Of a stretch of 21,602 bases of DNA, positions 836 through 20,521 are shown in pieces (the first letter of the stretch is position 1; each line of letters starts with the position of its first letter). This DNA is from an uncultured archaeon. GTDB taxonomy: Archaea; Asgardarchaeota; Heimdallarchaeia; Heimdallarchaeales; Heimdallarchaeaceae. A program made the position numbers and the translations under genes. Where the stretch lies: the NCBI GenBank assembly GCA_964534625.1, contig CAZHRF010000047.1, forward strand, positions 1 to 21,602, written 5' to 3'. The notes beneath the pieces were generated by a model, which saw nothing but the letters and a program-made list of their open reading frames with translations, was not told the DNA's origin and ran no database searches.

Positions 836-1702
836 TTACCAATTAAATTTATAACCTAATAATTCATATAATTCTTCATTTAAAGGCTCATAATATTTTG
901 CTAATTTATTGTATATTTTTAAATCTATAGGTGGATATTTATTGGTGTTAAATGCTTTAAATTCATTTAAGTTTATGGGTGGCAAGTTAAGAAATTTTAG
1001 AATGTGTAAATAGCTGATATCCGTATCACTAAAGAAATCTTCACTCTTTATTATCAAAATTTGATCTCTTTTGAAGTATTTAAACCATTTTTTCAGATGT
1101 TTTGCATAATAACCTGTATCAAGATAGCTATAATGCTGATGTTTGATACTAAAATAAAACTTGTTTCTCTTAAATTTTTCATATTCTTTCTTTAGTCTTT
1201 CTCTTTCCTTTTTCAAAGCAGATTCTATAGACAATCTTTCATAACCCTTGCTTCTTTCATGATAATAATGAGAATAGGCTCTATATATAGGGTTTCTTAG
1301 CATAATAATTACCTTCACATATGGTATATCTATACTCATTCTTTCTGGTACAAAAGGACAGTTAAAATAATAGGGTGTTGACTCACCAGTAATCACATTC
1401 TTTTTATTAAATACTTTTTTATAAACTGTTCTATAAATACTAGAAGGAAAGTTCGATTTATACCAATCAAACCCTTTATAATAATTTCTGTCATAATAGT
1501 GAACTTCTTTTGTTTTTGAAGCTAAAAAATTAGGATGTTCTAATAAATATCTATAAAGTGATGTTGTACCGCATTTTTGAGGACCAATTATTACAAATTC
1601 TGGTTTTTTAAGCTGATTTTTTATTACTTTTTTTGATAGATTACGAATGGAAAAGCAAAATAAGTACAGTCCTAGTTTCATTTTTTTAAGCACAATAATC
1701 AA
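836..1702 (-). CDS. PAPS-dependent sulfotransferase (Sulfotransfer_1; heparan sulfate N-/3-O-sulfotransferase-like domain)
   Basis: 5'-PSB loop IIGPQKCGTTSLY, KEVHYYD, GESTPYY, 3'-PB motif MLRNPIYRAYSHY, and C-terminal YYEPLNEELYELLG..FNW. The true start may be the ATG at 1681. Confidence 0.93.
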   Translation of the reverse strand: MIIVLKKMKLGLYLFCFSIRNLSKKVIKNQLKKPEFVIIGPQKCGTTSLYRYLLEHPNFLASKTKEVHYYDRNYYKGFDWYKSNFPSSIYRTVYKKVFNKKNVITGESTPYYFNCPFVPERMSIDIPYVKVIIMLRNPIYRAYSHYYHERSKGYERLSIESALKKERERLKKEYEKFKRNKFYFSIKHQHYSYLDTGYYAKHLKKWFKYFKRDQILIIKSEDFFSDTDISYLHILKFLNLPPINLNEFKAFNTNKYPPIDLKIYNKLAKYYEPLNEELYELLGYKFNW

Positions 1703-1763
1703 GAAAATAATACTGTGTTACATATATAAGTATAATGCTGTTAATCAATTTTTTAATCAACTA

Positions 1764-3089
1764 AGAGTACCCTAACAAAAATTTCGTCCACTTTTGTCTC
1801 AGAAGTTCGGTCCCCCTTGTGAGTAGATAAGACACAGCAGTACAATCTTCAACAACAAACAAAATTCCGACAAAAATAAAGATGTGAGTACGAATTGTAC
1901 AGTATGAAAAGTGCACAAACGATACTCACATGTGAACAAGTGAACCAGCTTTATGAACTTTTAGATGACATCCAGATAGACGACAGCGTGAAGAAACGAG
2001 CAAGAATTGTCCTTTTACGGGAATATAACGGATATTCTCAAACTCAGGTACAAAAAAGAATAGCAACGAATCCAAAACAAATACGGAAATGGGTTGAACG
2101 GTTTTATGCAGAAGGTACAGTCGGGGTGTACGATAGAACACGATCTGGGCGACCCACAACTATCACCCACAAAGAACAAGCAATAATAGAGAAGGTACTT
2201 CGACACTCGCCTGGTGAATCGAAGATTGACGCCCCGGTACGGACTTGGTCATTAGCCAGTCTCAGTACCTATTTACACGAGGATTACAGCATCATTTGCA
2301 GCCGAGGGCATCTCGGACGATTATTACACCAATGGGGCTGGGTGTATAGGAAAGTGGAAGACGATTTTGTTCGCCGAGATCCCGACTATGAGGTGAAAGC
2401 AGCAAGAGTACAAAAATTGATCGAAAATCCACCTCCTAGGTGCCGAGTGATAAGTGTAGATGAAAAAGGACCAATTTCGGTACGATTTCATCGTGGGCGC
2501 CAGTGGCAAAGAAAAGAAGAACGTGTTGCTATCCCAAAAAATGCAAACAAAACGCATGGAAAAACAGTTTTATTCGGAGCATGGGATGTCCATTCTCGAG
2601 AATTTTGGTCCGTTTTTTCGCCTAAGCGTGACACCGTAGGGTTTTTGGCGTTATTGGACACCTTAGTTATGGAAAGAATTGATTCAGGTTTTGATGCAGT
2701 CTACATTCTCTTAGATAATCTTTCTGTTCACAAGGCAAAGAAAGTAAATGCTTGGAAACGAGACCATCCAAAGTTTAAGTTTGTCTTTCTTCATACCTAT
2801 TCCTCCCAATTACAACCTATAGAAGGATTGTTTAGTGTTTTACAACGTGAAGTCCTAGACAACTACTGGTGGAGTAGTGTTGATGAGATTCACCAAGCCA
2901 TTACAACCTGGAAATATTTCTACAATTCCGACCGGCGAACTATCCATTCTCGTCTTCCACACCGCCCTCGCGCGTCAAGAGTGTTGTATACTCCACATCC
3001 TCCTTAGACCGTGACGCCACAACGTTTTCACTTGGGGTGTTCCCAACTTCTGAGACAAAGGATGGACGAAACTTATGTAAGGGTACTAC
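1764..3089 (+). mobile_element. IS630-family insertion sequence, apparently intact
   Basis: Imperfect TIRs of about 42 bp (1766-1807 AGTACCCTAACAAAAATTTCGTCCACTTTTGTCTCAGAAGTT; 3045-3087 is the reverse complement). Flanked by TA at 1762-63 and 3090-91. One full-length transposase ORF. Confidence 0.92.
1895..3007 (+). CDS. IS630-family transposase (HTH + DDE_3)
   Basis: N-terminal RARIVLL…KWVERF…RSGRP HTH region. Catalytic motifs SVDEK, LLDNLSVH, SSQLQPIE. Alternative ATG start at 1904. Confidence 0.95.
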   Translation: MYSMKSAQTILTCEQVNQLYELLDDIQIDDSVKKRARIVLLREYNGYSQTQVQKRIATNPKQIRKWVERFYAEGTVGVYDRTRSGRPTTITHKEQAIIEKVLRHSPGESKIDAPVRTWSLASLSTYLHEDYSIICSRGHLGRLLHQWGWVYRKVEDDFVRRDPDYEVKAARVQKLIENPPPRCRVISVDEKGPISVRFHRGRQWQRKEERVAIPKNANKTHGKTVLFGAWDVHSREFWSVFSPKRDTVGFLALLDTLVMERIDSGFDAVYILLDNLSVHKAKKVNAWKRDHPKFKFVFLHTYSSQLQPIEGLFSVLQREVLDNYWWSSVDEIHQAITTWKYFYNSDRRTIHSRLPHRPRASRVLYTPHPP

Positions 3090-3161
3090 TAAGATCGATT
3101 GTTCACTAAACCAACATCGTTAACAATATAAAGTGAAGTTACCCTGAGCATGTGATAGAAC

Positions 3162-4093
3162 ATGAAAGAACAACGTAACTTCGACAAAATTAGGAAAAGA
3201 GTAGTTAAAAAAGCTTTGGAAGGAGCGAATAAAACACAACTTGCAAGACAATATATGGACAGCACGAACTTCATATACAAGTGGATAGGACGATATATGG
3301 AAGATCCAACCGGAGCATGGTGGAAAGAACGACCAAGGGCATCCAAGAATCCTAAACGGAAACTAACACCTGAAATACAAGAGAGGATACTACACGCACG
3401 AAAAAAATGGGGATTAAACATCGTAAAGATTGCAGTGGTGTTACAACGAGAAGGAATAAAGCTGAGTTATACAACCATTTGAAAAGTGCTTGAAAAAGTA
3501 GGAGAAGAGAATTGGAGTAGAAGAAAAAAGATCTATGTCAGGTATAAACAGTTTGAACGAGAAACACCAAATGATCTGTGGCAAATTGATCTCAAAGGAC
3601 CAGTGTGGATAGAAGAACAAGGACAACATATACACGTGATGACGATGATTGATGATCACTCACGCTTTTTAGTACTAGCAAAGTTCTATACGCGTCCTAT
3701 ACATCATGACGATATTCTTACAGAAATCGATAGATGTGTTCGTTCATATGGTAAACCGCGACAAATACTGACAGATAATGGGGTATAATTTTATGCGGTG
3801 AGAGGTGGAACTAGTAACTTTACCAGACAGCTACGCCAACAAGGAATTGAACATATCCGGTCTCGAGTGAATCATCCCCAAACCTGTGGGAAAGTCGAAC
3901 GCCACATGGAACGATTTTTAGGGAACTACCCAGGGTAGGATTAACCTATTGTAATTATGATTTGGCCCAATATCGTGATTATTATACCTTCTTCCGTCCT
4001 CATCAAGGGATCTCCTTCCTTACTCCCTGTGAAAGGTTTATGAATGTACCCCCTAGACCTATTATACTCAAAAGTGTAATCGATCTTAGTTGA
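3162..4093 (+). pseudogene. IS481-family transposase pseudogene
   Basis: HTH region, then PNDLWQID, IDDHSR, LTDNG*F, HPQTCGKVER and RPHQGISFLTP. In-frame stops at 3480-82 and 3786-88, a frameshift near 3905, and a final TGA at 4091-93. Confidence 0.9.
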
Positions 4094-4146
4094 GTTAACA
4101 GAGGTACTAGACTTACAGAAAAATTAATAATAAAACAAATCAATTC

Positions 4147-6135
4147 ATGTCAATGAATGAAGCGAATTGTAAATGTTCCTTTAACTTGAAAAAATCAATA
4201 ATGAATAACTTATTTATAATAAAGATATTCGTTAATATGTTGGTCTTATCTTTATTTGTATTAACAACCTTATTTGGTATATATAATCCCTTTGACCCTT
4301 TTTACTTATGGAAAACTTTACCGCCTCTACAAGGCAGTGATGGGTTAACCTCATTTAATGAAATTATATTCGCAATCTTTAAAATAAATATTTTTAATTT
4401 ATTAATTAGTTTAAGTGTTATTATAGTAAATATTTATCTTTTGTTTACGCTTTGGAATTTTGAACAAAAAAAAGAACGCCTATTCTTTTTTATAATGACC
4501 TTTCTATTACTTTATGCTTTTTCAATTTCTCCAAATTTATATACTTTTAGGCTTTGGTCTACAGATTCTGCATTTCATTTGTCACTAATTAATAAGTTTA
4601 AACAAGTGTCAAACTATATTCCTCCAAAAGTTTATTATCAATATGGAAATTTTCTCTATCATAAATTTTTTGCACATATCTCCAACTGTTTTAATATAAA
4701 TTCTCATACTCTATTATTGTTTCTACCTCAATTATTAACAAATACTATATTTTTTATAGGTCTTTATTTACTATTATTCTCAAAAAATAATCAATTATTT
4801 GAATTAATTAATGACAAAAGGCGTATCTTTGTTATTATACTGTCTCATCCATTATTGCTTCGCTATATGTCAATACCCGCTCCTTTTAATTTAGTACTAG
4901 CATTTGCTCCTTTAGTAATTTATTTTTCACTAAATATTTTTGAAGCCCACATATATAGCTTATTATTATTTTTGACCATCTATCTTACAATAAATATCCA
5001 TGTTTATGGTTACTTTTATATCCTAGTTTCAATCCAGAGTGTTTTTGTATTAATATTGTTTAAATATCATATAACTAGTAACAATATTACTTCATTTTTG
5101 TTAATCAGTAATTTATCTATTTTAATTACTTTAATCTTTCTTATATTTCCAAGTCTCCTTATCAATATGTTCATAACTGTTTTTAATATGATCCCTGGCG
5201 AAACAAATATCTTCATAAAAATAACGGGAAGCCTTGATTATGGTGGAAAAATGTTAAACTATTATTTTCAAATATATTCATTATATTCTTACCTAAAGAT
5301 ATTTGAATTAATCCTATATTTTGGTCCAGTTCTTTATATTATTGTACATAATCAATACTGCTATTATAAAATATATTTCAACAAGAAATGTAGTAGTAAG
5401 GTTAATGGTTTAAGACTCTTTTGTGATGTTTTTTTTCCTTCCGTTATACTTGGTTATTTTTTTGGTGAGGAATTAGCGTTTCAGAGAATGACTCTTTTTT
5501 CAATTTTTATTTACTATATATTGTTTCTTAACGAAATAATTCCAAAAATTAAACGATTTTTAAGAAAAGTACTACATTGGTTTCGAAAGACAGTCTTTCG
5601 TGAGCAATATAAGGTTATAAATATAAACAAAATCAAGATTTTTAACAAAAAACTAAAAATAAAAGAAAATATTTTTTATGTATCTGTAATTATTATCATG
5701 TTATTACTTCCATTTATCCAAAGCCATCCTTATAGTTCTACACAGTATCATGCTCTTGAGTGGATAAAAAACAATACACCCCATGATTCAACAATATTAA
5801 CATGTGCAAATAACTTTGATTCTCTGACAAATGCAATTACTGGAAGGGTTGCAACTGGTTATAGTTGGATATTATTCGATAATGATAGCAAATATGATGA
5901 AGAATATCGAATTAATGAATATATTGAGCGATTTGTTGATGGGAAATATCTTTATCTACTATTGTATTTTGATAGAGGACATATATACTATACAATAAAT
6001 GCCGATAGAATGCGTGTAGAGGCCTTTTTTATACATCAGTATATTTCAAATTCCTCTAACTTCCATTTGGTTTATACTAATCCAAATACAGAGATATATC
6101 AAATTGGTATTGTAAGTGTTACATCCCTTTTTTAG
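4147..6135 (+). CDS. Multi-pass membrane protein, GT-C fold (AglB/STT3-like architecture), putative lipid-linked-sugar glycosyltransferase
   Basis: About 12-14 hydrophobic segments, a loop motif STDSAFH resembling the D-x-x-(Y/F)H motif of AglB/STT3, and a C-terminal soluble domain starting ALEWIKNNTPHDSTIL…AITGR. It lacks WWDYG. The start may be 4153 or 4201. Confidence 0.65.
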   Translation: MSMNEANCKCSFNLKKSIMNNLFIIKIFVNMLVLSLFVLTTLFGIYNPFDPFYLWKTLPPLQGSDGLTSFNEIIFAIFKINIFNLLISLSVIIVNIYLLFTLWNFEQKKERLFFFIMTFLLLYAFSISPNLYTFRLWSTDSAFHLSLINKFKQVSNYIPPKVYYQYGNFLYHKFFAHISNCFNINSHTLLLFLPQLLTNTIFFIGLYLLLFSKNNQLFELINDKRRIFVIILSHPLLLRYMSIPAPFNLVLAFAPLVIYFSLNIFEAHIYSLLLFLTIYLTINIHVYGYFYILVSIQSVFVLILFKYHITSNNITSFLLISNLSILITLIFLIFPSLLINMFITVFNMIPGETNIFIKITGSLDYGGKMLNYYFQIYSLYSYLKIFELILYFGPVLYIIVHNQYCYYKIYFNKKCSSKVNGLRLFCDVFFPSVILGYFFGEELAFQRMTLFSIFIYYILFLNEIIPKIKRFLRKVLHWFRKTVFREQYKVININKIKIFNKKLKIKENIFYVSVIIIMLLLPFIQSHPYSSTQYHALEWIKNNTPHDSTILTCANNFDSLTNAITGRVATGYSWILFDNDSKYDEEYRINEYIERFVDGKYLYLLLYFDRGHIYYTINADRMRVEAFFIHQYISNSSNFHLVYTNPNTEIYQIGIVSVTSLF

Positions 6136-6186: not shown

Positions 6187-6515
6187 TTAACGTATAGTTA
6201 TCACCAATACAGCTGTTTATTTAGTTAATCACCCCCTTGAGTTAAGCTTTCAGTAAGAAACGTTCTAAACTTCTGACGAACAGTAGAGGGATGGAATGAA
6301 AGTAGACTACGAGTAAAAGACTTATACCGACGTTTTGCTGCCTCCTCTTGACTGAACGATAGAACAGCTATAATCCAAGTAGAAAGCGGAAAGGACGAAA
6401 AAAGGTCTTTAAAAGATTCAACATCAGTAAATGACCGTAAACTGACAAGAAAAGTCAGTGCTGGTGCTACCCAATCAAACGTACTTGGTGTATGCATACG
6501 ACCACCCTGTGACAA
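6187..6515 (-). mobile_element. Relic of an unclassified IS: transposase C-terminal tail (ORF 6225-6515) plus conserved end, copy 1
   Basis: The last 90 aa align without gaps to ORF 11223-11495 (47/90 identical). The sequence after the stop is shared, including an identical 17-mer (TTAACGTATAGTTATCA, 6187-6203). Confidence 0.7.
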
Positions 6516-6599
6516 GTCACCTATCCCAAAGTAATTTTTTTATTCAAAATAAGATAAAAAGATACAAAAAATATCGACACATACGCTTTTGTATATATT

Positions 6600-7328
6600 T
6601 CAAACATCATTGATTATTCTGTCATATAAAATATAAGCATTTTTTAACTTTATTTTATGTTTATTAGAATCAAGTTTTTGTATATAGTACATCTTCAATT
6701 TTTCTTTATATTGTGATGGTCTTGATATTTGGTTTCTAATATTATTACCATATATCTCATTTGATTTTTTAATAAGTTGTGATACTTTTTTTTCATTTTC
6801 GATAGTTGGATGATATATTTTGAAGTTTGTTGAATATTTGCTATTTACTTCCTTTATTGTAGAACCAAAATCTTGAATTACTTGATCAAAATGACCAATT
6901 ACTAATTTTTTTCTATTTCTATAAATTTCTCTATGGTATTGAATATAGTAATTGATTAGGATATTAATGTTGGAACCTTTATAAGCAACTAAATTAGATA
7001 AAATTGCTTCTAAAGGATTCCTTACTAATACTAAAGTTGGAATACCAAATTTGATTGATTTTTCTATTTGAGCTATCACGTGTAAATGATGAGCAACTTT
7101 AACTTCTTTTTCTTGACCAACCAAAAAAGCACAATACGCATAGGTATTCGCTGAACGGGGATATCCTTCAATAGTTATATCAGTGTCTTTATTCACATAC
7201 CACAATTTATGTCTTTTCCGACAAAATGCATAAAAATTATACAATTTAACACTAGTTCCAATATACGTCCTAAATATGTTAGACAAATCAAAAAGATATT
7301 TTTCCAATTTCGACATTTTCAAACACAA
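6600..7328 (-). CDS. Sulfotransferase-fold protein (second, divergent family)
   Basis: 5'-PSB-like ITIEGYPRSANTY and 3'-PB-like LVLVRNPLEAILS. Likely start is the ATG at 7316. Confidence 0.78.
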   Translation of the reverse strand: MCLKMSKLEKYLFDLSNIFRTYIGTSVKLYNFYAFCRKRHKLWYVNKDTDITIEGYPRSANTYAYCAFLVGQEKEVKVAHHLHVIAQIEKSIKFGIPTLVLVRNPLEAILSNLVAYKGSNINILINYYIQYHREIYRNRKKLVIGHFDQVIQDFGSTIKEVNSKYSTNFKIYHPTIENEKKVSQLIKKSNEIYGNNIRNQISRPSQYKEKLKMYYIQKLDSNKHKIKLKNAYILYDRIINDV

Positions 7329-8065: not shown

Positions 8066-9334
8066 ATGAATATTTTACTACTTGCTTATAACTTTCCACC
8101 TAGTAAACGTGTAAGTGGTTTTCGCCCTTATAGTTTTGTAAAATATCTTCCCGAATTTGGTATAAATATAACTCTACTCACAAACCTAAATGAAGAAGAG
8201 AAAGAAACACTTTTAACAAATATTTATATTGATAATATTTTTACTGTTGAAAACAGCGTACTTCATAAATTTTTATATAAATTAAAGATTTTACATGCTT
8301 GGAAAAAAGGGAAGTTTAACAGATTATTACTTTTACAAAACAATTGTTTTTCTTGGGTTAATAGGTCCTATAAGGTAGGTAAAAAAATACTGAAAGAAGA
8401 ACAAATTGATGCTATTATGGCGATAGGTGAGGATTTTAAGACATTTATTTTAGGATATAGGCTTTCAAAAAAATTTGGCGTTCCTTTAATACTTGATTAT
8501 CAAGACGCTTGGTCTGAGAAACCTTTTGATATTTATCGTTTAAAATGGTTTGAAAAAGTGGTAAAGAGAAGAGTAAAAAAACATGAAAAAAAAATTATAG
8601 ATAAAGCCAATATATTGATAGCTGTTGGACCAGAGTATGCGAAACATATTGCCAAAAACCTGAATATCAATGCAGAAGAATTTAAAATTGTTTACAATGG
8701 TTTTTTTGAAAATTATCAACAGAAAAACATTGTAGATAAAAGTAAAAAACCATTTAGTATTTCATATTTTGGTAGCATTTATGGTAACCGAAAAAATATC
8801 GCAGTGAACTTCTTACAAGGACTTAAAAAAATGATTGCAATTAATGGGCTTGATTTAGAAGATATTGAATTTAGATATGCTGGTATAACCTCACGCCGTA
8901 TTATTGAACAAATGGTTAAAAATATCGAAATAGTAGAACACTATAAAGATTGCGGATATTTCGATCAAGATAAGTTTATGGAAAACGATGAGTACATGAA
9001 AGCGATACAAAATTCAACTATTTTAGTTACTTTTGCACCAAAAGGTGCAGAATTTGTTATTCCCACGAAAATCTATGATTATGCAGTGGGAAATTCCCAT
9101 ATTCTGGTTATTGGGGAAGATGGAGCAATATCTTCTTTATGTAATAATATGGAACAAGAATATACTTTAGTTTCCAATGATGTCCATAAGATTTCTGAAA
9201 CCCTAGATCGGTTATATAAAAAATGGAAAAATAACTCTCTTAAGTTTGGTTGTAATATTAATAAATTAAGCAAATATAATAGACGTTATCAGGCAAAAAT
9301 ATTGGCAGAACATCTTAAAAATGATTTAAAATAA
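8066..9334 (+). CDS. Glycosyltransferase, GT4/GT-B fold
   Basis: N-terminal ILLLAYNFPP, PLILDYQDAW, IVYNGF, ISYFGSIY, IPTKIYDY and C-terminal YNRRYQAKIL. GAGGT SD upstream. Confidence 0.9.
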   Translation: MNILLLAYNFPPSKRVSGFRPYSFVKYLPEFGINITLLTNLNEEEKETLLTNIYIDNIFTVENSVLHKFLYKLKILHAWKKGKFNRLLLLQNNCFSWVNRSYKVGKKILKEEQIDAIMAIGEDFKTFILGYRLSKKFGVPLILDYQDAWSEKPFDIYRLKWFEKVVKRRVKKHEKKIIDKANILIAVGPEYAKHIAKNLNINAEEFKIVYNGFFENYQQKNIVDKSKKPFSISYFGSIYGNRKNIAVNFLQGLKKMIAINGLDLEDIEFRYAGITSRRIIEQMVKNIEIVEHYKDCGYFDQDKFMENDEYMKAIQNSTILVTFAPKGAEFVIPTKIYDYAVGNSHILVIGEDGAISSLCNNMEQEYTLVSNDVHKISETLDRLYKKWKNNSLKFGCNINKLSKYNRRYQAKILAEHLKNDLK

Positions 9335-9402: not shown

Positions 9403-10359
9403 TTAGGATATACAAATAGTTCTTACTAATTCATACTTAACCCACGATAATGAATTTTCATTACTTCCAACAAATACTCTTGGAATTTTAAATAAGTTCA
9501 AGGGCTCATTTATCCTAATCCACCTTCTGCCAATTATAACCGCGGTTTTATATCCAGCTTTTCTTACTGCTTCTACTATTTCTTCGTTAAAATCTCCATT
9601 AGGATAGGCAAAATGTTTTATTTCATGTTTTAATAAATTTTCTAGATGTTTTTTGGATTCAACTATCTCCTTTCTGGCTTCTTGAATTGAAATATTAGTT
9701 AAACAAGGATGATTGACTGTATGAGCACCTATTGTAATACTATCATGCTTATCAATCTCTTTTATCTGATCATTTAACATAACATCAGATGTTGTTGATT
9801 CACAATTATATTCTCGTTCTTTTTTTTCTATAATTTTTAGGGAATCATGGAAAGGGATCTGTTTTAAATGTTTCTTGTCTATACATGCCCCTTTTTCAAT
9901 TAATCTATCTACTCTAGAAAACCAAAACTCATAAAAACCATCATTTTTTATTCCACCAGTAGTAATGTAATGAATTACAGGAATTTCTTCCTTTTTTATA
10001 ATTGGAAAGATATTTTGATAAAATGATCTACTTCCATCATCAAAAGAAATAACTAATGATGGCTTCGTTATTTCTTCATTATTTTTAAATTGTTCATAAA
10101 GCTCATTAAATGAGATGAATTGAAATTTCTTTTTTAGAAATTTTAAGTGTCTAGCAAATCTTTCTTTTTTACATTCATGGTACAATAGAATACCAATTTT
10201 TGAACTTAAATTTCTATTTAACACTTTAAAAATTAAATCAAAAAATCTACAATTATCAAGGAATTGAATACTAAGTCCAAATACTCTTTCTTTTTTATTA
10301 AGCATAAAATTAATAGAGATCGTCTTTATTTTAATTTTCCCATGAACTTCAAAGTTCAT
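9403..10359 (-). CDS. Polysaccharide deacetylase (NodB/CE4, IcaB/PgaB-like)
   Basis: ILLYH, ISFDDG, IGAHTVNHPCL, HFAYPNG and IPRV motifs. The start could be 10305. Confidence 0.93.
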   Translation of the reverse strand: MNFEVHGKIKIKTISINFMLNKKERVFGLSIQFLDNCRFFDLIFKVLNRNLSSKIGILLYHECKKERFARHLKFLKKKFQFISFNELYEQFKNNEEITKPSLVISFDDGSRSFYQNIFPIIKKEEIPVIHYITTGGIKNDGFYEFWFSRVDRLIEKGACIDKKHLKQIPFHDSLKIIEKKEREYNCESTTSDVMLNDQIKEIDKHDSITIGAHTVNHPCLTNISIQEARKEIVESKKHLENLLKHEIKHFAYPNGDFNEEIVEAVRKAGYKTAVIIGRRWIRINEPLNLFKIPRVFVGSNENSLSWVKYELVRTICIS

Positions 10360-10491
10360 CTCAGTGCATTATAAGGTGTTACAACAGCCTAGAGCGGTGG
10401 TTTGGCGGTCTTTTGTGTATTACTACGGATATGAAAGACAGTAACAAGAAATAAGTTGATTATAATTCTTATTTGTCCGAAGTAAATAGTT

Positions 10492-10837
10492 TTTCACTAA
10501 ATCAACACTGTTAACACTATAAAATGAAGTTACGCTGAGCATGTGATAAAGCATGAAAGAACAACAGAACATTGGAAATGATTAGGAAAAGAGTATTTAA
10601 AAAACTTTCGAAGGAGCGAATAAAACGCATCTTGCATGAGAATACCTGATCGGTCGGTAGATGATCTATAAATGGATAGAAAAATATAAAGAAAATGTAA
10701 CATGAGACTAGTGGGAATAACGCTCGCGGGCACCAAAAAACCTCAAACGAAAAGTAACCTTAGAAATAAAAGAGAAAATTCTCCAAGCACGAGAAGAAGG
10801 AGAGTTAAATATCGTAAAAATCCCGGTCGTCTTACAA
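10492..10837 (+). pseudogene. Second, more degraded IS481-like relic (5' portion)
   Basis: Collinear nucleotide similarity to about 3101-3447 (ttcactaaa.caaca..gttaaca.tataaa.tgaagttac.ctgagcatgtgata; gaaggagcgaataaaac), with stops and frameshifts. Confidence 0.85.
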
Positions 10838-11110: not shown

Positions 11111-11532
11111 AAAAAGTTTCGTACGGTATGGTATGGCAGACTACCGTATCCCCGCACAACGTCCATTTTAGAGGGTCTCCACAGCAAAGTCAAAAAAACG
11201 TTAGGTAAATGGGGGTGGATTAATGAACACTCAAAGTACGTTTCACTGGACTGCAATTACTCTCTCGTTTCTGGATTGCTTACAATCATTTACTGGGGTA
11301 GAATCGTTTCGTTACCTCTTTTCTTTGTTTCCCCTTCAGTATTGGTTAATTGCGGTTCAAACTATTCGGAACCGAATAGTAGCAAAACTTCGCCACCAAC
11401 AATTTGCCTCGCACCTGCTTTCTTTCAGTCCCTCGACAGTTTGGGTTAAACTTGGGCAGTATCTCACTCAAGCCTTACCTCAAGGGGGTGGTTAACTAAA
11501 GAAACGTCTGTATCATGATAACTATACGTTAA
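11111..11532 (+). mobile_element. Relic of an unclassified IS: frameshifted transposase C-terminus (includes ORF 11223-11495) plus conserved end, copy 2
   Basis: The upstream frame reads YGRLPYPRTTSILEGLHSKVKKTLGKW, a PRT(T/N)xxLE transposase-like motif. It joins GGLMNTQST… by a 1-nt shift in the G5 run at 11211-11215. The end 17-mer TGATAACTATACGTTAA is at 11516-11532. Confidence 0.72.
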
Positions 11533-11546: not shown

Positions 11547-12716
11547 TTACTTAAAAGAACTCGTTCCTTTTATAATGCTTTTATATTTATCATACATTTT
11601 TTCACCTATTTCTTTCCAAAGAAAAACTTTGCATTTTTTCTTTTTCTGCTTTGTCTTTGCTAATTTATTGAATATTTTTACAAGTTCATTTGGTTTTTTG
11701 GGATCAAATAAAAAATCAGTTTTTTCTTTGAAATATCTAGCACATCCCACATCACTTGATATAAATGGGGTAACATAGTACTTTGCTTCTAATAATGCTA
11801 GTTGGCATGCCTCACTATAACTAGATGAAATATAGTAATCACCGTATTTATAGAATGCTATTAAATCTTCGAAATCTACTCTACCTAAGATAACAGCGTT
11901 TAGTTTTTCTGTTCTTATTAATTTTTCTAAACACTTTTTATAATAAGCTCCAACACAGTATGCTTTTGAACCTATTATAAAGAATTTTATTCTGATATTA
12001 TTACTAATAGATAGTGCTTTTAGAGTTTCATGTTGAGCTTTTCTATAAGATAATGCCCCAACCGAAAAGGTTACTATCTCATTTTTCATGATATTATATT
12101 TTTTTTCAAACTCTTTTTTACTTATTGTAGGCTTTGGTAATTGTTGTATACCATTCGGTAAGAAATATATGTTCTCTTTCTTGATTCCATATCGAGTTAA
12201 ATCAGTTTTAATTTTCTTTGACATTGCGTGATAAAAGTATGTTTTATCTAAGTTTTTCAAACGGTACCATCTACAAACATTTGACCATAAAGTGTCAATA
12301 AATCCAAAAATCCCTGGTACAATGGTGTTTTTATATGAAAATGATGGTAGGTCATGAAATGTTATCAATATATTAGTTTTTTGGCTTTGTTTAATTTTAA
12401 ATGAAAAACCTCCATAAGAGTGAACATGTACAATATCATAATCCTCTAACTTTATTAGTTTATTTATTTTTCTTCTAATAATTATATTTTCATATATAAA
12501 ATTGAAAACAGGTATTTTTAGTCTTGGATTGTATGTAATTATTTTTATCTTATTTTTTTTATACTCGTGTAATATTTTATTATTTATTTTTATTTTATCA
12601 GTTATTATTGTTATATCCAATTTTTTTGATAATAGTGATCTTAATAAATTGTAAGCTGCAAATTGAGCCCCACCCGAGGGGTTCAATAAACCTTTTGAAA
12701 AATATAAAACTTTCAT
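11547..12716 (-). CDS. Glycosyltransferase family 4
   Basis: MKVLYF…GGAQ, DIVHVH, ITFHD, LPNGI, VGALSYRK and EX7E motif EACQLALLE. The ATG at 12716 is preferred over GTG 12764. Confidence 0.93.
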   Translation of the reverse strand: MKVLYFSKGLLNPSGGAQFAAYNLLRSLLSKKLDITIITDKIKINNKILHEYKKNKIKIITYNPRLKIPVFNFIYENIIIRRKINKLIKLEDYDIVHVHSYGGFSFKIKQSQKTNILITFHDLPSFSYKNTIVPGIFGFIDTLWSNVCRWYRLKNLDKTYFYHAMSKKIKTDLTRYGIKKENIYFLPNGIQQLPKPTISKKEFEKKYNIMKNEIVTFSVGALSYRKAQHETLKALSISNNIRIKFFIIGSKAYCVGAYYKKCLEKLIRTEKLNAVILGRVDFEDLIAFYKYGDYYISSSYSEACQLALLEAKYYVTPFISSDVGCARYFKEKTDFLFDPKKPNELVKIFNKLAKTKQKKKKCKVFLWKEIGEKMYDKYKSIIKGTSSFK

Positions 12717-12737
12717 GAGATTTTTTATTACTTTATC

Positions 12738-12744
12738 TTTAAAA
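12738..12744 (-). promoter_or_regulatory. Putative archaeal TATA box (TTTTAAA) for the leaderless GT4 gene
   Basis: About 22 bp upstream of ATG 12716 and preceded by an A-rich BRE-like stretch. Confidence 0.4.
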
Positions 12745-12974
12745 GTTTTAGCAAATAAAAACACAATTCACATATTTGGTTGCCTTAAAAATTACCATGT
12801 TAATAAAGGGTATTCAAACACCTTAGATTGTATTTCGATTAAACCATAAGCGGAAACTAAAATTGTATTGGAAGAAATACAATACCAAACGTTTATGCTG
12901 TTGTAAAGTGATGCGTTTACGTAAGGGAACGAGTATGAGTTTGGTAAAGCAAAAGACATGTTCAACAGCTGCTT

Positions 12975-13446: not shown

Positions 13447-13468
13447 TGCTGCCACCATCTTTTGTTAA

Positions 13469-14659
13469 ATGACTAAATTTAAGGGAAAAATAGAAAAATT
13501 GTTTCCAGGATTGTTTTTTATAGTATTAATTACTTTTTTTATTTGGATTTTTTTTGAAGGTTTTAAATTTTATATCACCTCAATAATCTCTGTCTTTTAT
13601 TGGGAAGGCTTATCAATTATAAATGGCATTATTCTTATAATTTATATATTACTTTATTCTATATTATTAATATACTTGCTTCTTTTAGTTTGGGAATTTT
13701 TCTTTACAAAACATGATCCTATTTTACTACCTAAAATTAAATATGAATTATCAGATAAAGAAAAAGAGAAATTATTTGTGATGATACCTGCTTACAATGA
13801 GGAAGATTCAATCGAAACAGCAATCCATGATGTTCGGAAGCATTGTTCTCAAATTGTTGTAGTTGATGATGGTTCAACCGATAGTACATACAATAAAGCC
13901 AAATCTACAGGCGTGGTAATAGTCAAGCATTCTATGAATATGGGTTTAGGTCAAGCTTATAAAGATGGTTTAAATAAGTGCATTGATCTTGGTGCAGAGA
14001 TTGTAGTGGTTTATGATGCAGACAGACAGTTTCTTGCTGAAGATATTCCAATTATGGCTTATTATATTCTAAATCAAGATTATGAATTAATACTTGGATC
14101 TCGTTTCAAAGGTGAAATAGAAGAAATGTCATCATTCAAGAAAATTGGGAACAAAACTTATACTCAATTAGTAAGGTTTTTAACTAAAACAGGCTATAGT
14201 GACGCACAAACAGGTTTTCGTGCTATTAGATCTGATTTTGCAAGAAGATTGACTTTAAGAGGTGGTTTTAATATTGCCCAAGAAATGCTTATTGAAGCAT
14301 ATTATAAACGAGCTAAGATTGGAGAAATACCTGTAATAGTTGAAAAAAATAAAAGAGAAGATGGAAAATCTCGATTAATAAAAAATCCTCTTGATTATGC
14401 TTTCAAAACTAGTCATCACTTGTTGAAGGTTTATTTGGATTTAAAACCATTATATATTTCATCAATATTTTTTTCAGTCTTGTTCATTAATGGGAGCATA
14501 TTGATATTTATAACAATCATCAATGCAACCATCTATCAAATTCAAAGTTTAAGTTTCTTGCTTATTGGTTTGATATTGATACTCCTCTCATTTTTCATAA
14601 TAATAATCGGTTATTATTTTGAAGCTAATAGTAAAACGAGACAATTTTATATTGAATAA
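13469..14659 (+). CDS. Glycosyltransferase family 2, dolichol-phosphate glycosyltransferase (DPM1-like), with N- and C-terminal TM segments
   Basis: IPAYNEE, VVVDDGSTD, NMGLG, YDADRQ, ILGSRF and DAQTGFRA motifs. Confidence 0.92.
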   Translation: MTKFKGKIEKLFPGLFFIVLITFFIWIFFEGFKFYITSIISVFYWEGLSIINGIILIIYILLYSILLIYLLLLVWEFFFTKHDPILLPKIKYELSDKEKEKLFVMIPAYNEEDSIETAIHDVRKHCSQIVVVDDGSTDSTYNKAKSTGVVIVKHSMNMGLGQAYKDGLNKCIDLGAEIVVVYDADRQFLAEDIPIMAYYILNQDYELILGSRFKGEIEEMSSFKKIGNKTYTQLVRFLTKTGYSDAQTGFRAIRSDFARRLTLRGGFNIAQEMLIEAYYKRAKIGEIPVIVEKNKREDGKSRLIKNPLDYAFKTSHHLLKVYLDLKPLYISSIFFSVLFINGSILIFITIINATIYQIQSLSFLLIGLILILLSFFIIIIGYYFEANSKTRQFYIE

Positions 14660-14937: not shown

Positions 14938-16173
14938 TCACTGAGAATTCTGATTTATCTCCTCCAATAAAGCATTGACTTTTTTCTTTATGACTTTAAT
15001 TGAATAATTTTCTTCTATATATTTTTTTCCTGTGTCCAAAAAAGTTTTGTAGAATTTCTGATCTTCATACATTTTGATAATCAATTCTGCAAATTCTTCT
15101 GGATTATGACTTGTTGTTAATCCAACATTTGATTTTTCTATTATCTTTTCAACATCTCCACCCTTTGTTGCTATTATAGGTTTGTTCAACATCATATACG
15201 TAAAAAGCTTTGCTGGTATAGCTGTTTTATTAAAGATTCCCTTTTTCATCGGCAAAACGGATATAGAAACACTTTGTAGAAACTCATTATAATCTTCGAG
15301 TGTGAAATGCTTATTTATTACATTAACTCTATTTAATCCTAATTCTTTGATTCCTTTTTCTATATAGCCCTTCAATGGTCCTTTTCCATGAATGATACAA
15401 TTTATATTATAGTTCTTTGACTCAATTATTTGCATCATGTCTAAAATCAATTTAAAATCATACCCTGGTCCTAATATTCCGCTATATACTATATTAAAAT
15501 TCTTATTGGGGTTGCTTATAGTTTCAATATTCTTATTTTTCTTTATAAATCCATTAACATCAAAACCTACCTCTATCAAATGTATTTTTTTAGAGTTTAT
15601 GTTATATTTTTCTATTACTGCTTGCTTTATATTAGAACTAATTGGTGTTATGTAATCACAGTAATTATATGCAAATTTATTGAAGATATCTGCCAATTTT
15701 ACAAGAAAGTTATCTTTTATTAATCCTAATGATACAATTACATCTGGCCAAAAATCATCAACATTCAGTATTAAAGGCTTCCCCATAATCATCTTGTAAA
15801 ATATCCCTGTAATATTCCCAAAGAAATTTGGATTTGTAACCCAGATTAAATCAATGTTTTTAACATATTTAATTGCTTTAGTGGACTTATAACAAAACAG
15901 CAGATAATTGATCATTCTTGCTGAAAATGAATTATGGGGGATTGAAGGCATCTTTAATCTAATAATTGTGATATTATCACTAATATTTTCAAAAAAGATT
16001 TTCTTTTTTTTGTATTTTTCAGGTATGACCCCGTCTGGATAATGTGGTATGGTTGTTATAATGGTTACTTTATATTCTAGTTTTTCAATGCATTTCAGTA
16101 AGTTATTTAATCTTGTAACAGAACCTGCAACATCGGGACTGAAATGTTTTGCTATTATACAAATCTCTTTCAT
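14938..16173 (-). CDS. Glycosyltransferase family 4 (WbuB-like)
   Basis: HFSPD, TTIPHYP, LNVDDFWPD, YSGILG and IPAKLFTYM..KPII motifs. The ATG at 16173 is preferred over TTG 16188. Confidence 0.92.
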   Translation of the reverse strand: MKEICIIAKHFSPDVAGSVTRLNNLLKCIEKLEYKVTIITTIPHYPDGVIPEKYKKKKIFFENISDNITIIRLKMPSIPHNSFSARMINYLLFCYKSTKAIKYVKNIDLIWVTNPNFFGNITGIFYKMIMGKPLILNVDDFWPDVIVSLGLIKDNFLVKLADIFNKFAYNYCDYITPISSNIKQAVIEKYNINSKKIHLIEVGFDVNGFIKKNKNIETISNPNKNFNIVYSGILGPGYDFKLILDMMQIIESKNYNINCIIHGKGPLKGYIEKGIKELGLNRVNVINKHFTLEDYNEFLQSVSISVLPMKKGIFNKTAIPAKLFTYMMLNKPIIATKGGDVEKIIEKSNVGLTTSHNPEEFAELIIKMYEDQKFYKTFLDTGKKYIEENYSIKVIKKKVNALLEEINQNSQ

Positions 16174-16192
16174 AAGTTTAATTAGCAAACCA

Positions 16193-16688: not shown

Positions 16689-17651
16689 ATGAAAAAAGTT
16701 TTAGTTTGCGGTGCAGGTGGTTTTATTGGTTCTCATTTGGTTAATAAGTTAAAAAATGAAGGTAATTGGGTAAAAGGTGTAGATTTAAAACGACCCCAAT
16801 TCTCAAAAACCAAAGCAGATGAATTTGTAATTGGCGATTTAAGAGAACAAACTGTTGTTCGTAGTGTCATAGATCAAGATATCGACGAAATATATCAGTT
16901 AGCAGCTGATATGGGTGGAGCAGGTTTTGTATTTACTGGTGATAACGATGCAGATATCATGCATAATTCTGCATTAATCAATCTTAATGTTCTTGAACAA
17001 AGTGTTAAGATGAACATTAAGAAAATTTTTTACTCTTCCTCGGCTTGCATTTATCCAGAGTATAATCAACTAGACCCAAATAATCCTAAAACTAGTGAAG
17101 AATCTGCTTATCCAGCTAATCCTGACAGTGAATATGGCTGGGAAAAATTATTTAGTGAAAGAATGTATTTAGCTTTTCATAGAAACTATGGATTAAATAT
17201 TAGAATTGCAAGATTTCACAATATTTTTGGACCTGAAGGTTCTTGGAATGATGGTAGAGAAAAAGCTCCAGCAGCTTTATGTAGAAAAATAGCAATGGCT
17301 TCAGATGAAATAGAAATTTGGGGGGATGGTTTACAAACAAGATCATTTCTTTATATAGACGAATGTTTGGAAGGTGTTCAGAGATTAATGGATTCCGATT
17401 TTATTGGACCTGTTAATATTGGTTCTGAAGAGATGATATCTATAAATCAACTGGCAGAAATAATTATGGACATAGCAAACAAACAATTAAAAATTAAACA
17501 TGTACCAGGTCCAGAAGGTGTTAGAGGACGGAATTCGGATAATAAACTAATTGAAGAAAAATTAAATTGGAAACCCAATTATCCTGTCAAAGAAGGGTTA
17601 AAGAAAACCTATAAATGGATAAAAGAACAAGTAGAAAAAACTAATAAGTGA
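16689..17651 (+). CDS. NAD-dependent epimerase, GDP-mannose 3',5'-epimerase (GME)-like extended SDR
   Basis: GAGGFIG, QLAADMGGAGF, SSACIYPE, YGWEK, RFHNIFGP, GREKAPAALCRK and GPEGVRGRNSDN, which are signature segments of GME-like proteins. Confidence 0.92.
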   Translation: MKKVLVCGAGGFIGSHLVNKLKNEGNWVKGVDLKRPQFSKTKADEFVIGDLREQTVVRSVIDQDIDEIYQLAADMGGAGFVFTGDNDADIMHNSALINLNVLEQSVKMNIKKIFYSSSACIYPEYNQLDPNNPKTSEESAYPANPDSEYGWEKLFSERMYLAFHRNYGLNIRIARFHNIFGPEGSWNDGREKAPAALCRKIAMASDEIEIWGDGLQTRSFLYIDECLEGVQRLMDSDFIGPVNIGSEEMISINQLAEIIMDIANKQLKIKHVPGPEGVRGRNSDNKLIEEKLNWKPNYPVKEGLKKTYKWIKEQVEKTNK

Positions 17652-17878: not shown

Positions 17879-18032
17879 GTACGTTTTTCACCCCCTAGGA
17901 GTCAGTTGAAGGGAGAACTGTTGGTGAATATTTCATAAAGTCCGAGTTTTATTGGAAATTGTTTATTTTCTTTACATAAATGTGCCTCCGTTTCTTTATT
18001 AGTCTAATCTAAATAGGGGATGAAACACTTAC
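17879..18032. mobile_element. 154-bp MITE, IS66-like ends
   Basis: 19-bp imperfect TIRs (GTACGTTTTTCACCCCCTA / GTAAGTGTTTCATCCCCTA, 16/19). The flanks CACACAGA and CATATAGA look like a decayed 8-bp target duplication. No ORF. Confidence 0.75.
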
Positions 18033-18124
18033 CATATAGATTTTTTTCTTTCTTTTCCTCATTTTATTTGAGCAGTTTAATTATTCATAATGGATGGAAT
18101 TAAGATAATTTTTCAGATTTGCTT

Positions 18125-19087
18125 TTATGTTGAAATATATTTGAAATATTCAATAGTTTTAACTAATCCTTCTTCTAATTTAATTTTAGGTTCATATTCC
18201 ATATATTTTTGTGCATAATTTATATCAGCCAATGAATCTCTTACATCTCCTGGTCGTTCTGGTCCATGCTTGACCTCTGATGTTGATCTTGTTTTTTCTT
18301 TTATTATTTCTGCCAGTTTATTTATGCTTATTCTCTCCCCACAGCCTACATTCATAATTTTTCCATCTGATTCTGTTGTCAATAATGCCTTTATATTTGC
18401 TTGACAAGCATTTTTTACATAGGTGAAATCTCTTGTTTGTTCTCCATCCCCGTTTATGGTTATTGGTTCATTTCTTAATGCTTTTCTTATGAACAACGGA
18501 ATTACTGCTGAATATTCTGAGTTTGGATCTTGATACGGTCCATAGATATTAAAATATCTTAGGCTTGCGGTTCTTACCAATCCATTATCGTTGTATACTT
18601 TTCCATAGTGCTCTCCTGTTAATTTTGTTACTGCATACGGTGATAATGGGTCTGGTTTCATATCTTCTTGTTTTGGTAATGTTGGTGTATCTCCATAGAC
18701 ACTTGATGACGATGCGAATATCACTTTTTTCACTTTATATTCTGCTGCCAGCTGTAATACATTAAGTGTTCCTGTTACATTTGCTTTATTTGATGCTAGC
18801 GGATCTTTAAAACTTCTTGGTACGCTTGGTATGGCTGCTTGATGTGATATATACTCTATATTATTTTTTTCAAACACTTTTTCTAGTTCTTCTTTATGTG
18901 CTATATCACACATATTTAATTGTACTTTTTCTTCTTCTAGTAGTTCTTTTATATTTGCGAATCTTCCTGTTGACAGGTTATCTACTATCACCACTTTTTC
19001 TGCTAGTGGTATTAGTTCTCTTACCAAGTTTGATCCTATGAATCCTGCTCCTCCTGTTACCATTACTTCCGTAAATTTTTCTTCCAT
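18125..19087 (-). CDS. UDP-GlcNAc(A)/UDP-glucose 4-epimerase-like SDR (WbpP/TviC-like)
   Basis: TGGAGFIGS, HQAAIPSVPRS, ASSSSVYGD, SPYAVTK, RYFNIYGPYQDP and GDGEQTRDF. ATG 19087 has an AGGTG SD. Confidence 0.92.
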   Translation of the reverse strand: MEEKFTEVMVTGGAGFIGSNLVRELIPLAEKVVIVDNLSTGRFANIKELLEEEKVQLNMCDIAHKEELEKVFEKNNIEYISHQAAIPSVPRSFKDPLASNKANVTGTLNVLQLAAEYKVKKVIFASSSSVYGDTPTLPKQEDMKPDPLSPYAVTKLTGEHYGKVYNDNGLVRTASLRYFNIYGPYQDPNSEYSAVIPLFIRKALRNEPITINGDGEQTRDFTYVKNACQANIKALLTTESDGKIMNVGCGERISINKLAEIIKEKTRSTSEVKHGPERPGDVRDSLADINYAQKYMEYEPKIKLEEGLVKTIEYFKYIST

Positions 19088-19162
19088 TTTTACACCTATG
19101 ATTGTTTTTTTAATAACCACTTTTTTTCTGTTTAAATTTTTAAATATTTTAAATATTAAATG

Positions 19163-20521
19163 TTAAATTTCTCTTTCTTTTCTTGAACTTCCCAGACCTC
19201 TATATCTAAACTCTTTAACCATTCTTTCTTTATCCAATTTTCTTCTCCCATCTATTAATACTATTTCCTTATTCTTACTTCTTTTTTTGATCTCTAGTAT
19301 CTTCTCTTCTGTAAACTCTTTATGATGGGTAATTAGCATTATTGCATCTATTTCTTCTTCTTCTTGTATGTCTTCTACTTTTTGTACGACTTTTACTCCC
19401 CACAGTTCTTTTTCTTCTATGAACGGATCGACTAGTATCATTTCGCTTCCTTTTTTCTTCAATTCTTCTACCACTATTTCTGTTGGCGCTGATCTCAAAT
19501 CTCCTGTTTCTTCTTTATAGGCTGCTCCTAGTATGACTATTTTCCTTTTTTTCAACGCTTTTTCTTGTTCATTCAGTTCTTCTTGTAATAGTTCTACCAT
19601 ATGTTTTGGCATGGTATCATTTATTCTTCTCCCTGCTAATATCACATATGGTTCATAGCCTAGTTCTTTGGCTTTCATTGTTAGATAGAACGGATCATGT
19701 GGCAGACAATGTCCTCCTACTCCTGCTCCTGGATAATATGGCACAAAGTTCCATTTTGTTTTTGCTGCTTCTATCACATCCATTACATCTATCCCTATTT
19801 TTTCACATATTAGTGCTATTTCATTCATTAATGCTATATTCAGATCTCTTTGGGTATTTTCTATGACTTTTGATGCTTCTGCTGTTTTTATGTCTCTTGC
19901 CACATGTATTTCTGCTTTTATCACTTTTCCATATATTTTTGCCAGATATGCTGCTATTTGTTCATTTTCTCCACTTATCACTCTATTTACTGTTATTATG
20001 GTATGTTTTTCATCTCCCGGGTTATATCTTTCTGGCACATATCCCATATAGAACTCTTTTCCTTGCTTTTTTTTGGAGAATTTTTCTATTGTTGGCGCTA
20101 ACACTTCTTCTGTCGTTCCCGGGTATACTGTTGATTCTAGGACTATTATTGCTCCTTCCTTTAGGTTCTTTCCTATCTGTTCTCCTGCACTTATAATATA
20201 TTTCAGATCGGGTATTTTTCTTTCATCTACTGGTGTTGGTACTATGACTAGTATTACATCACTTTCTGCTATTTTTCTTTCATCTGTTGTAAACGTTATT
20301 TTTTCTGTTTCTCTTGCATCATCATAATTTACTTCTAATCCTACATCAAAAAAGGGTAGTTTTCCTTCATTTAACATTGCTATTTTTTTCTCATCTACAT
20401 CGAACCCTAGTACCCTAAACCCATTTTTTGCAAAATGCAATGCTGTTGGTAATCCTACATATCCTAATCCCATCACACATATAACTGGATCTTCTTTTAA
20501 TACAATTTCTTCCTTTTTCAT
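19163..20521 (-). CDS. Nucleotide-sugar 6-dehydrogenase (UDP-N-acetylhexosamine dehydrogenase, WbpO/TviB/WecC family)
   Basis: GLGYVGLP, VPTP, LESTVYPGTT, PERYNPG, KVIENTQRDLNIA and catalytic GGHCL. GAGGT SD upstream. Confidence 0.95.
   Translation of the reverse strand: MKKEEIVLKEDPVICVMGLGYVGLPTALHFAKNGFRVLGFDVDEKKIAMLNEGKLPFFDVGLEVNYDDARETEKITFTTDERKIAESDVILVIVPTPVDERKIPDLKYIISAGEQIGKNLKEGAIIVLESTVYPGTTEEVLAPTIEKFSKKKQGKEFYMGYVPERYNPGDEKHTIITVNRVISGENEQIAAYLAKIYGKVIKAEIHVARDIKTAEASKVIENTQRDLNIALMNEIALICEKIGIDVMDVIEAAKTKWNFVPYYPGAGVGGHCLPHDPFYLTMKAKELGYEPYVILAGRRINDTMPKHMVELLQEELNEQEKALKKRKIVILGAAYKEETGDLRSAPTEIVVEELKKKGSEMILVDPFIEEKELWGVKVVQKVEDIQEEEEIDAIMLITHHKEFTEEKILEIKKRSKNKEIVLIDGRRKLDKERMVKEFRYRGLGSSRKEREI

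Follow-up and report, generated by a model that had tools for sequence, protein, structure and literature searches.

A probable surface-glycan island with two unrelated sulfotransferase-fold genes in a Heimdall-group Asgard archaeon

We analyzed a window of 21,602 nucleotides (nt) that makes up the entire 21.6-kb contig CAZHRF010000047.1 (C47) of an Asgard archaeal genome (G000), and which carries two genes for proteins with the fold of sulfotransferases that use 3′-phosphoadenosine 5′-phosphosulfate (PAPS). As a whole, the window is somewhat better explained than not as a surface-glycan island of accessory character, shuffled by horizontal transfer, in a Heimdall-group Asgard archaeon, the product of which would be an acidic, partly de-acetylated, sulfated heteroglycan and not a glycosaminoglycan (GAG)-type repeat. 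Judged by gene content, the locus is a variant on prokaryotic surface-glycan clusters that include sulfotransferases as tailoring enzymes. The original prediction, made from the DNA letters without database searches, had proposed a pathway for a sulfated, deacetylated, GAG-like uronic-acid glycan in a probable archaeon. Its gene families (other than the GT-C-like label of one membrane protein), both sulfotransferase folds and a PAPS source were recovered, and every gene that it listed was found at the position given, while its GAG-like character was not supported. Families were assigned with Pfam, NCBIfam and PDB searches and, for one sulfotransferase, with fold searches.

The first sulfotransferase, ST1 (positions 836–1702, minus strand), is a PAPS-type enzyme of the HS3ST/NDST-like clade of Sulfotransfer_1 (Pfam PF00685, E = 1e-20; 74.7 bits against a gathering cut-off of 22), with a probable start at 1681 that gives a protein of 281 amino acids (aa). 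The best solved relatives in a PDB sequence search were HS3ST3A1 (6e-25), HS3ST5, the bacterial structure 3rnl and NDST1 (4e-19), and ST1 aligns over its full length with animal HS3ST1, HS3ST3A1, HS3ST5 and the NDST1 sulfotransferase domain (E 6e-25 to 4e-19). GPQKCGTT, KEVHYYD and LRNPIYRAYS fall in register with 1t8t, such that GPQKCGTT, Glu-x-His-x-x-Asp, RNPxxRAYS and a C-terminal PPID...Y..LLG..F.W motif are common to ST1 and HS3ST/NDST1, in agreement with the motif set that had been proposed as shared by the animal enzymes and their prokaryotic homologues. ST1 differs from the animal proteins in that identity is only ~30% and the ~20-residue insert that precedes the C-terminal motif in HS3ST3A1 is missing. 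The 5′-phosphosulfate-binding Lys, the 3′-phosphate-binding Arg and Ser and the catalytic Glu were invariant or nearly so across 43 homologues, and all four close homologues with known context are located in glycan clusters. ST1 is a predicted PAPS-dependent sulfotransferase with a putative glycan acceptor.

ST1 homologues were expected in bacteria, and the family proved large and mostly bacterial: a word-indexed search returned 920 homologues (~45% identical), and species genomes held more than 588 loci at 38–47% identity in Cyanobacteria, Chloroflexota, Actinomycetota, Bacillota and others. Within the Asgard archaea, 13 of 400 genomes had an ST1 match at E ≤ 1e-20, and 30 genomes of the same family as the host had nothing beyond weak sulfotransferase paralogues. 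In a tree of 114 sequences, which contains no animal sequences, ST1 grouped with two metagenomic sequences but had no wider grouping with support; Asgard copies were dispersed over the tree and require at least three to five origins. This patchy and scattered distribution indicates an accessory, transfer-prone gene, with no evidence for a vertical tie to the animal enzymes.

The second gene, ST2 (6600–7328, minus strand), was assigned from its structure model and fold searches. It had no sequence match in Pfam, NCBIfam or PDB, and both phmmer and a 65-sequence profile returned only noise against PDB. An AlphaFold2 (AF2) model built from the 65-sequence alignment had a predicted local distance difference test score (pLDDT) of 94.7, and the top 50 Foldseek and top 19 VIA matches to this model (Z 8.4–10.4 in VIA) were all PAPS sulfotransferases, with generic P-loop kinases ranking below. 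The model and fold searches thus bear out the claim of a second, unrelated sulfotransferase-fold gene. A PRSANT P-loop (Arg54), whose Arg we take to match that of tyrosylprotein sulfotransferases, follows the strand at residues 47–51, and an R99-x-P101...S107 3′-phosphate-binding motif lies at the strand at 94–98 and the helix at 101–111, with R99, P101 and S107 among the invariant residues. An HHLH motif is a candidate for the catalytic base in the model.

An exhaustive search placed ST2 in a family of 3023 cluster representatives (50% clustering), and a PF00685 match was found in 6 of the 65 relatives, all weak (best E 9e-4). On the strength of the modeled fold, ST2 belongs to a large PAPS-sulfotransferase-fold family that is unmodeled by Pfam. 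The ST2 domain is fused C-terminally to family 2 glycosyltransferases (GT2) and to a Wzx-type flippase in the relatives P0196, P0213 and P0200, and homologues are located in glycan clusters, which together tie the family to glycan synthesis. In another Asgard archaeon of the same class (L153; G074:C52:177000-196000), two ST2 homologues in tandem are adjoined by a GDP-mannose 3,5-epimerase of 53% identity, two dehydrogenases of the N-acetylhexosamine (HexNAc) type and a dolichyl-phosphate (Dol-P) GT2. Given this context, ST2 may be tied to a glycan containing L-galactose or L-gulose.

Genes for PAPS synthesis and a flippase are absent from the window, as the original prediction had noted, and their search was extended to the rest of the genome. 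The sat/cysC genes that it had suggested looking for are present on contig C45, where a PAPS module (C45:5614-9654, locus L136) comprises a Sat-CysC fusion, a CysQ-like gene and two TauE/SafE transporters. The fusion is a PUA_2-ATP sulfurylase-APS kinase of 584 aa, and the CysQ-like gene is a divergent one for an inositol phosphatase. The host thus has a route to PAPS, the lack of which had been named as a reason to abandon the sulfation hypothesis. G000 encodes about eight Sulfotransfer_1 genes. Of the 31 genomes examined in the family, 26 have such genes (1–9 each), while a strong APS-kinase match in a frame of ~580 aa was found in ~20 of the 31, with the Sat domain checked in G000 alone. 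The spread of both indicates that sulfation is probably a trait of the lineage, while the particular genes of the window are not. Two further genomes of the family have an APS-kinase gene 3.5–4.5 kb from a strong Sulfotransfer_1 gene (G029:C32:17168-21548 and G035:C55:23599-28774).

A second glycan and sulfation locus lies on contig C11 (C11:52742-64759; L134, L135), with a 45%-identical paralogue of one window glycosyltransferase (GT4a, below; tblastn), Wzx, NeuB, a hexapeptide acyltransferase and a CMP-sugar synthase fused to a PseG-like domain. At least two intact Sulfotransfer_1 genes are present there, and a third match is a fragment with a stop. This locus also encodes a sulfatase-fold protein with a sulfamidase-type SGSH_C domain, which could be either a sulfotransferase like Agl30/Agl31 or a sulfamidase. 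AglB is encoded on C1, and two to three Wzx flippases elsewhere in the genome.

The deacetylase of the window (9403–10359, minus strand) is a carbohydrate esterase family 4 (CE4) de-N-acetylase of the PgaB/IcaB/PplD-like subtype (Pfam PF01522, Polysacc_deac_1, E = 2e-23; 83 bits against a cut-off of 23). IcaB and PgaB were the best NCBIfam models, both below cut-off, and PDB matches were 6dq3, 4wcj and PgaB. FDDG, HTxxH, YPNG, the His of an N-terminal YHE and a C-terminal Arg are conserved, and F106-D107-D108-G109, H213, H217, H61 and R294 are invariant in an alignment of four sulfotransferase-linked CE4s; H61 presumably acts as catalytic acid, as its counterpart in PgaB does. The enzyme thus appears catalytically complete from its sequence, and hydropathy indicated neither a signal peptide nor a transmembrane segment. 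When searched by phmmer against PDB, it matched CE4 enzymes only, and the NDST deacetylase domain was unmatched although full-length NDST1 chains were among those searched; one paper groups that domain nearer CE18 (PMC13353177).

Whether CE4 and ST1 form a split equivalent of NDST, as had been suggested, was assessed from their linkage across genomes. In this scenario CE4 would de-N-acetylate HexNAc or its uronic acid (HexNAcA), ST1 would N-sulfate the resulting amine and ST2 would add O-sulfate. The homology between ST1 and the NDST1 sulfotransferase domain fits such a module, as does the closest ST1 homologue (L017, 54% identity), in which the sulfotransferase gene overlaps the CE4 gene by 11 nt and is followed by a gene for a 650-aa membrane protein. 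Pairs of sulfotransferase and CE4 genes also occur in two other ST1-family loci, L114 (directly adjacent) and L092 (4 kb apart), beside CE4 relatives in L169 (adjacent) and L234, and in the Asgard locus L152 (G383), where the neighbors of CE4 are a Sulfotransfer_3 enzyme and a protein homologous to the 650-aa one of L017. A single stop-to-stop frame spans both genes in L114, but the sulfotransferase match lies in another frame, and a fusion was ruled out. The polytopic 650-aa proteins (L017:11784-13736 and L152:11563-13497; 22% identity, E = 1e-20) form a family with no Pfam model that accompanies the CE4-sulfotransferase pairs of L017 and L152 despite their differing sulfotransferase families.

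Elsewhere in Asgard archaea, neighbors of the CE4 subfamily vary among L149 (G366), L150 (G321), L151 (G373) and L152 (G383): GNAT acyltransferases in two of them, a second CE4 with an ATP-grasp/low-molecular-weight-phosphatase fusion in another, and the Sulfotransfer_3 enzyme in L152. These variable neighbors fit a freed amine that would then be capped by the neighboring enzyme, which is compatible with the split module. Linkage was nevertheless rare, seen in two loci each among 80 of the ST1 family and 80 of CE4 (49 of the latter being at least 5 kb), none of the 10 Asgard ST1 loci had a CE4 within 10 kb, and the two genes are separate and 7.7 kb apart in the window. ST1 also has the E-x-H-x-x-D motif and scored 91 bits to 3-O-sulfotransferases compared to 72 bits to NDST, such that it resembles the former more than the latter in sequence. 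The mismatch between CE4 and the NDST deacetylase domain likewise argues against the module, and membership of a sulfotransferase family does not predict N- versus O-sulfation. What stands of the suggestion is the overlapping gene pair in L017 and the five other linked loci; the rarity of linkage and the 3-O-like ST1 count against it, and we regard a split NDST-like module in the window as rather unlikely. The wider proposition, that two separate proteins stand in for NDST and N-sulfate hexosamine glycans in this archaeon and in the few prokaryotes with overlapping or adjacent sulfotransferase and CE4 genes, is also unlikely; gene adjacency is the sole pointer to an N-sulfated, GAG-like product. 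To our knowledge (no search aimed at this was made), an N-sulfated glycan made by such a pair would be the first natural case of glycan N-sulfation outside animals.

The remaining glycan genes argue for a heteroglycan. A UDP-N-acetylhexosamine 6-dehydrogenase of the TviB/WbpO/WecC type (19163–20521, minus strand; NCBIfam and PDB 4r16, 3g79 and Cap5O) scored 428 bits to the NCBIfam NDP-sugar dehydrogenase model and 329 bits, below cut-off, to TviB, and its PDB relatives are UDP-ManNAcA and GalNAcA dehydrogenases. It adjoins a UDP-HexNAc(A) 4-epimerase of the WbgU/WbpP/TviC type (18125–19120, minus strand; PDB WbgU 1e-66 and WbpP 8e-65; NCBIfam TviC 239 bits, below cut-off). Three family 4 glycosyltransferases (GT4) were found: GT4a (8066–9334, plus strand; Pfam Glyco_transf_4), GT4b (11547–12764, minus strand; Glycos_transf_1 1e-20, Glyco_transf_4 6e-17) and GT4c (14938–16188, minus strand; Pfam). 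They are joined by a polyprenyl- or dolichyl-phosphate sugar synthase of the AglJ/PpgS/GtrB-like GT2 type (13469–14659, plus strand; PF00535), with 108 bits to NCBIfam AglJ and 104 bits to PpgS, both below cut-off, and three N-terminal and two C-terminal transmembrane segments predicted from hydropathy. The family assignments originally given to the dehydrogenase-epimerase pair, the GT4s and the Dol-P GT2 therefore hold.

Two nucleotide-sugar genes were additional to those originally listed. A GDP-mannose 3,5-epimerase (GME; 16689–17651, plus strand) matched Arabidopsis GME (PDB 2c59) over its full length (residues 3–318; 363 bits, E = 1.7e-107), and RmlB, a dTDP-glucose 4,6-dehydratase (20620–21600, minus strand), scored 437 bits against the 365-bit cut-off of TIGR01181, with its N-terminus cut off by the contig end. 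At the family level, these assignments show GME as a supplier of GDP-L-galactose or GDP-L-gulose, and the set as a whole as supplying UDP-HexNAc uronic acid, GDP-L-galactose/L-gulose and dTDP-6-deoxyhexose. No GAG-type polymerizing synthase (HAS, KfiA/KfiC, PmHS or chondroitin-synthase type) was found on the incomplete contig C47, where the glycosyltransferases are the three GT4s and the Dol-P-type GT2. Describing the product as GAG-like was thus an overstatement, since such a synthase is absent from the window and genes for L-galactose and deoxyhexose supply (GME and RmlB) point to a heteroglycan.

The polytopic 662-aa membrane protein MEM662 (4147–6135, plus strand) has ~11 transmembrane segments and a 130-aa C-terminal soluble domain by hydropathy. 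It had no Pfam match, and none that was useful even at E up to 10, and an AF2 model from 3 sequences had a pLDDT of 45. Its neighbors in a protein atlas, which give language-model hints, carried weak PMT_2, DUF2206 and DUF6541 labels (PMT_2 in 17% of one cluster), and a 35%-identical homologue is present in a glycan cluster of Ca. Lokiarchaeum ossiferum. MEM662 is a candidate Dol-P-sugar-using transferase or polymerase, and the GT-C-like label that it was originally given is a tentative one. Its family is unrelated to the 650-aa family of L017 and L152 according to hhalign (0.2% probability).

Taken as gene families, the locus likely encodes the synthesis of a sulfated heteroglycan that contains HexNAc uronic acid and is assembled on dolichol phosphate. 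The families are established, while the order of every step in the pathway is inferred. Cytoplasmic GT4s would use UDP-HexNAcA, GDP-L-galactose or GDP-L-gulose, dTDP-deoxyhexose and HexNAc to build an oligosaccharide on the dolichol-phosphate carrier, on the cytoplasmic side of the membrane, CE4 would strip some of the N-acetyl groups, also in the cytoplasm, and ST1 and ST2 would move sulfate from PAPS to two differing positions on the glycan, most likely hydroxyls. A cytoplasmic location for these steps is consistent with the lack of transmembrane segments and signal peptides in the GT4s, CE4, ST1 and ST2 (hydropathy; other than a weak N-terminal stretch in the longest ST1 open reading frame, ORF) and with PAPS being cytoplasmic. 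A Wzx encoded on another contig would then flip the lipid-linked glycan, after which MEM662 may use a Dol-P-sugar made by the GT2 to decorate it further outside the cell, and the glycan would finally be moved to proteins via AglB or polymerized.

Several observations weigh against this interpretation. The only Asgard glycoproteome so far, in which the N-glycans of P. syntrophicum were described, has no reported sulfate (PMC11284389). Among the 400 Asgard genomes, ST1, ST2 and CE4 occur in 13, 2 and 8, respectively, and overlap only in G000 and in one weak case on separate contigs, such that the co-occurrence of sulfotransferase and deacetylase that the original prediction had looked for in relatives was not seen beyond these two. 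In 30 genomes of the same family, none of the three was found apart from the weak sulfotransferase paralogues. Given that each is patchy and that they are not inherited as a group, these may be glycan-tailoring genes that came together by chance. Two insertion sequence (IS) elements occupy the shared promoter region of ST1 and MEM662 and may silence both, and the pathway genes alternate in direction with IS debris between them, which makes their co-regulation uncertain.

The sulfotransferases could also act on non-glycan acceptors, namely lipids, small metabolites or proteins, and merely be located in a glycan island. Family membership leaves the substrate open, and the best structural matches of ST2 include cytosolic small-molecule SULTs, Stf9 and tyrosylprotein sulfotransferases; in tblastn searches, moreover, glycan proteins of the window were found near few of 80 bacterial ST1-family loci, although this test is insensitive. 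Yet all close ST1 and ST2 homologues that were examined reside among glycosyltransferase, flippase and nucleotide-sugar genes, and the fusions of ST2 relatives to GT2 and Wzx point in the same direction, making non-glycan acceptors very unlikely.

Mobile elements raise the further prospect that the window is a decaying, IS-bombarded remnant with no defined product. Three IS elements or remnants, which were not part of the original description, split the locus, and repeats resembling miniature inverted-repeat transposable elements (MITEs) are also present. An IS630-family element (1766–3087, plus strand) has 46-nt terminal inverted repeats, Pfam DDE_3 and HTH domains, a GC content of ~43% and an intact 370-aa DDE_3 transposase ORF (1895–3007, plus strand), and is single-copy in the G000 assembly. 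Beside it lies a degraded IS481-like element (3099–4102, plus strand; Pfam HTH_32 and rve) with an in-frame TGA at 3483–3485 and a frameshift near 3788. Both sit between ST1 and MEM662, which without them would be neighboring divergent genes. In composition, C47 moreover deviates more than any other of the 57 contigs that reach 15 kb. A remnant is nevertheless highly improbable, as the 13 pathway ORFs are all unbroken, of full length and conserved in their catalytic motifs, and only the IS481-like transposase is broken.

Further traces of mobile elements include a decayed 5′ part of a second IS481-like element (10490–10837, plus strand; 75% identical to 3099–3446) and two repeat remnants related to one another, at 6207–6515 (minus strand) and, following that second element, at 11205–11513 (plus strand), as detected by repeat search, tblastn and blastn. 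ORFs of 96 aa (6225–6515) and 90 aa (11223–11495) were rejected as genes, as both are these repeat remnants. The termini of the IS481-like element are found at the ends of at least eight other G000 contigs, including C106, C96, C91, C27, C40, C21 and C20 (blastn), which indicates that this element is a main cause of assembly breaks in the genome. Relatives of the element flank an ST2 homologue on the metagenome contig L018, and one terminates contig L017. A 63-nt dispersed repeat (~6509–6573) has at least 15 genome copies, several close to contig ends, and an unstranded MITE-like 155-nt repeat outside the pathway (17879–18035) has at least 17 copies at 72–94% identity with short terminal inverted repeats, and nothing unusual in its RNA fold (z −0.28). 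Rfam and tRNA scans of the window gave no match.

G000 comprises 3.37 Mb in 120 contigs at 32% GC and is ~90% complete. It contains an archaeal 16S rRNA gene and a true actin (442 bits), which identify the host as an Asgard archaeon and settle the taxonomic assignment that had been left as a probable archaeon. No other contig of 15 kb or more correlated less well with the rest of the genome in its tetranucleotide profile than C47 (0.986), in line with an accessory island. C47 shares the 155-nt and 63-nt repeats with at least 15 other contigs (blastn), and because IS termini and dispersed repeats are common to many contigs and the composition is compatible, the contig belongs to G000, and mis-binning was ruled out.

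Compared to known systems, the locus combines familiar elements in a differing arrangement. ST1 stands alone without a fused deacetylase and would be cytoplasmic, unlike the Golgi-lumenal animal enzymes, and deacetylase and sulfotransferase are in separate polypeptides in the window, L017 and L114. In Halobacterium salinarum, Agl30 and Agl31, which have a sulfatase (alkaline-phosphatase) fold, sulfate two uronic acids of an N-glycan (PMC11980604). The window resembles that system as an archaeal glycan cluster with two differing enzymes for what would be two positions on a uronic-acid glycan, here suggested by the genes, and differs in the PAPS-sulfotransferase fold of the enzymes, their backing by Sat-CysC and the absence of AglB as an anchor within the cluster. 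The adjacent 6-dehydrogenase and 4-epimerase recall TviB/TviC, WbpO/WbpP and WbgU, which supply UDP-GalNAcA for the Vi antigen and O-antigens of bacteria, while scoring below the equivalog cut-offs, with GlcNAcA, GalNAcA or ManNAcA as the possible sugar. CE4 keeps the metal triad, catalytic Asp and N-terminal His of PgaB, IcaB and PplD, which act outside the cytoplasm, whereas no export signal was seen in its hydropathy and an insertion of ~60 residues sets its motifs 1 and 2 further apart. The GtrB/AglJ-like membrane GT2 with a large polytopic membrane protein is reminiscent of the three-component machineries that decorate with Dol-P- or Und-P-linked sugars (GtrA/B/C, ArnC/ArnT and AglJ-type), although no GtrA-like flippase was seen in the window.

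Our literature search returned no paper linking Asgard or Heimdall archaea with sulfotransferases. Expression of NDST in bacteria is a stated bottleneck in heparin biomanufacture (PMC13353177), and if the sulfotransferase-CE4 pairs do N-sulfate, they would be a ready-made enzyme pair, expressible in prokaryotes, of interest for that purpose. ST2, if its assignment is correct, would define a new and widespread family of glycan sulfotransferases that has no Pfam model. The patchy distribution of ST1, interleaved with bacterial sequences, is evidence against the idea that the animal heparan sulfate enzymes descend vertically from Asgard archaea. If the proposed sulfation is true, the PAPS-type enzymes here and the sulfatase-fold enzymes of Halobacterium would represent two unrelated chemistries for glycan sulfation in archaea. 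The occurrence of PAPS sulfotransferases and APS kinase across the family suggests that sulfated surface glycans are probably a trait of this lineage, which could be found by glycoproteomics.

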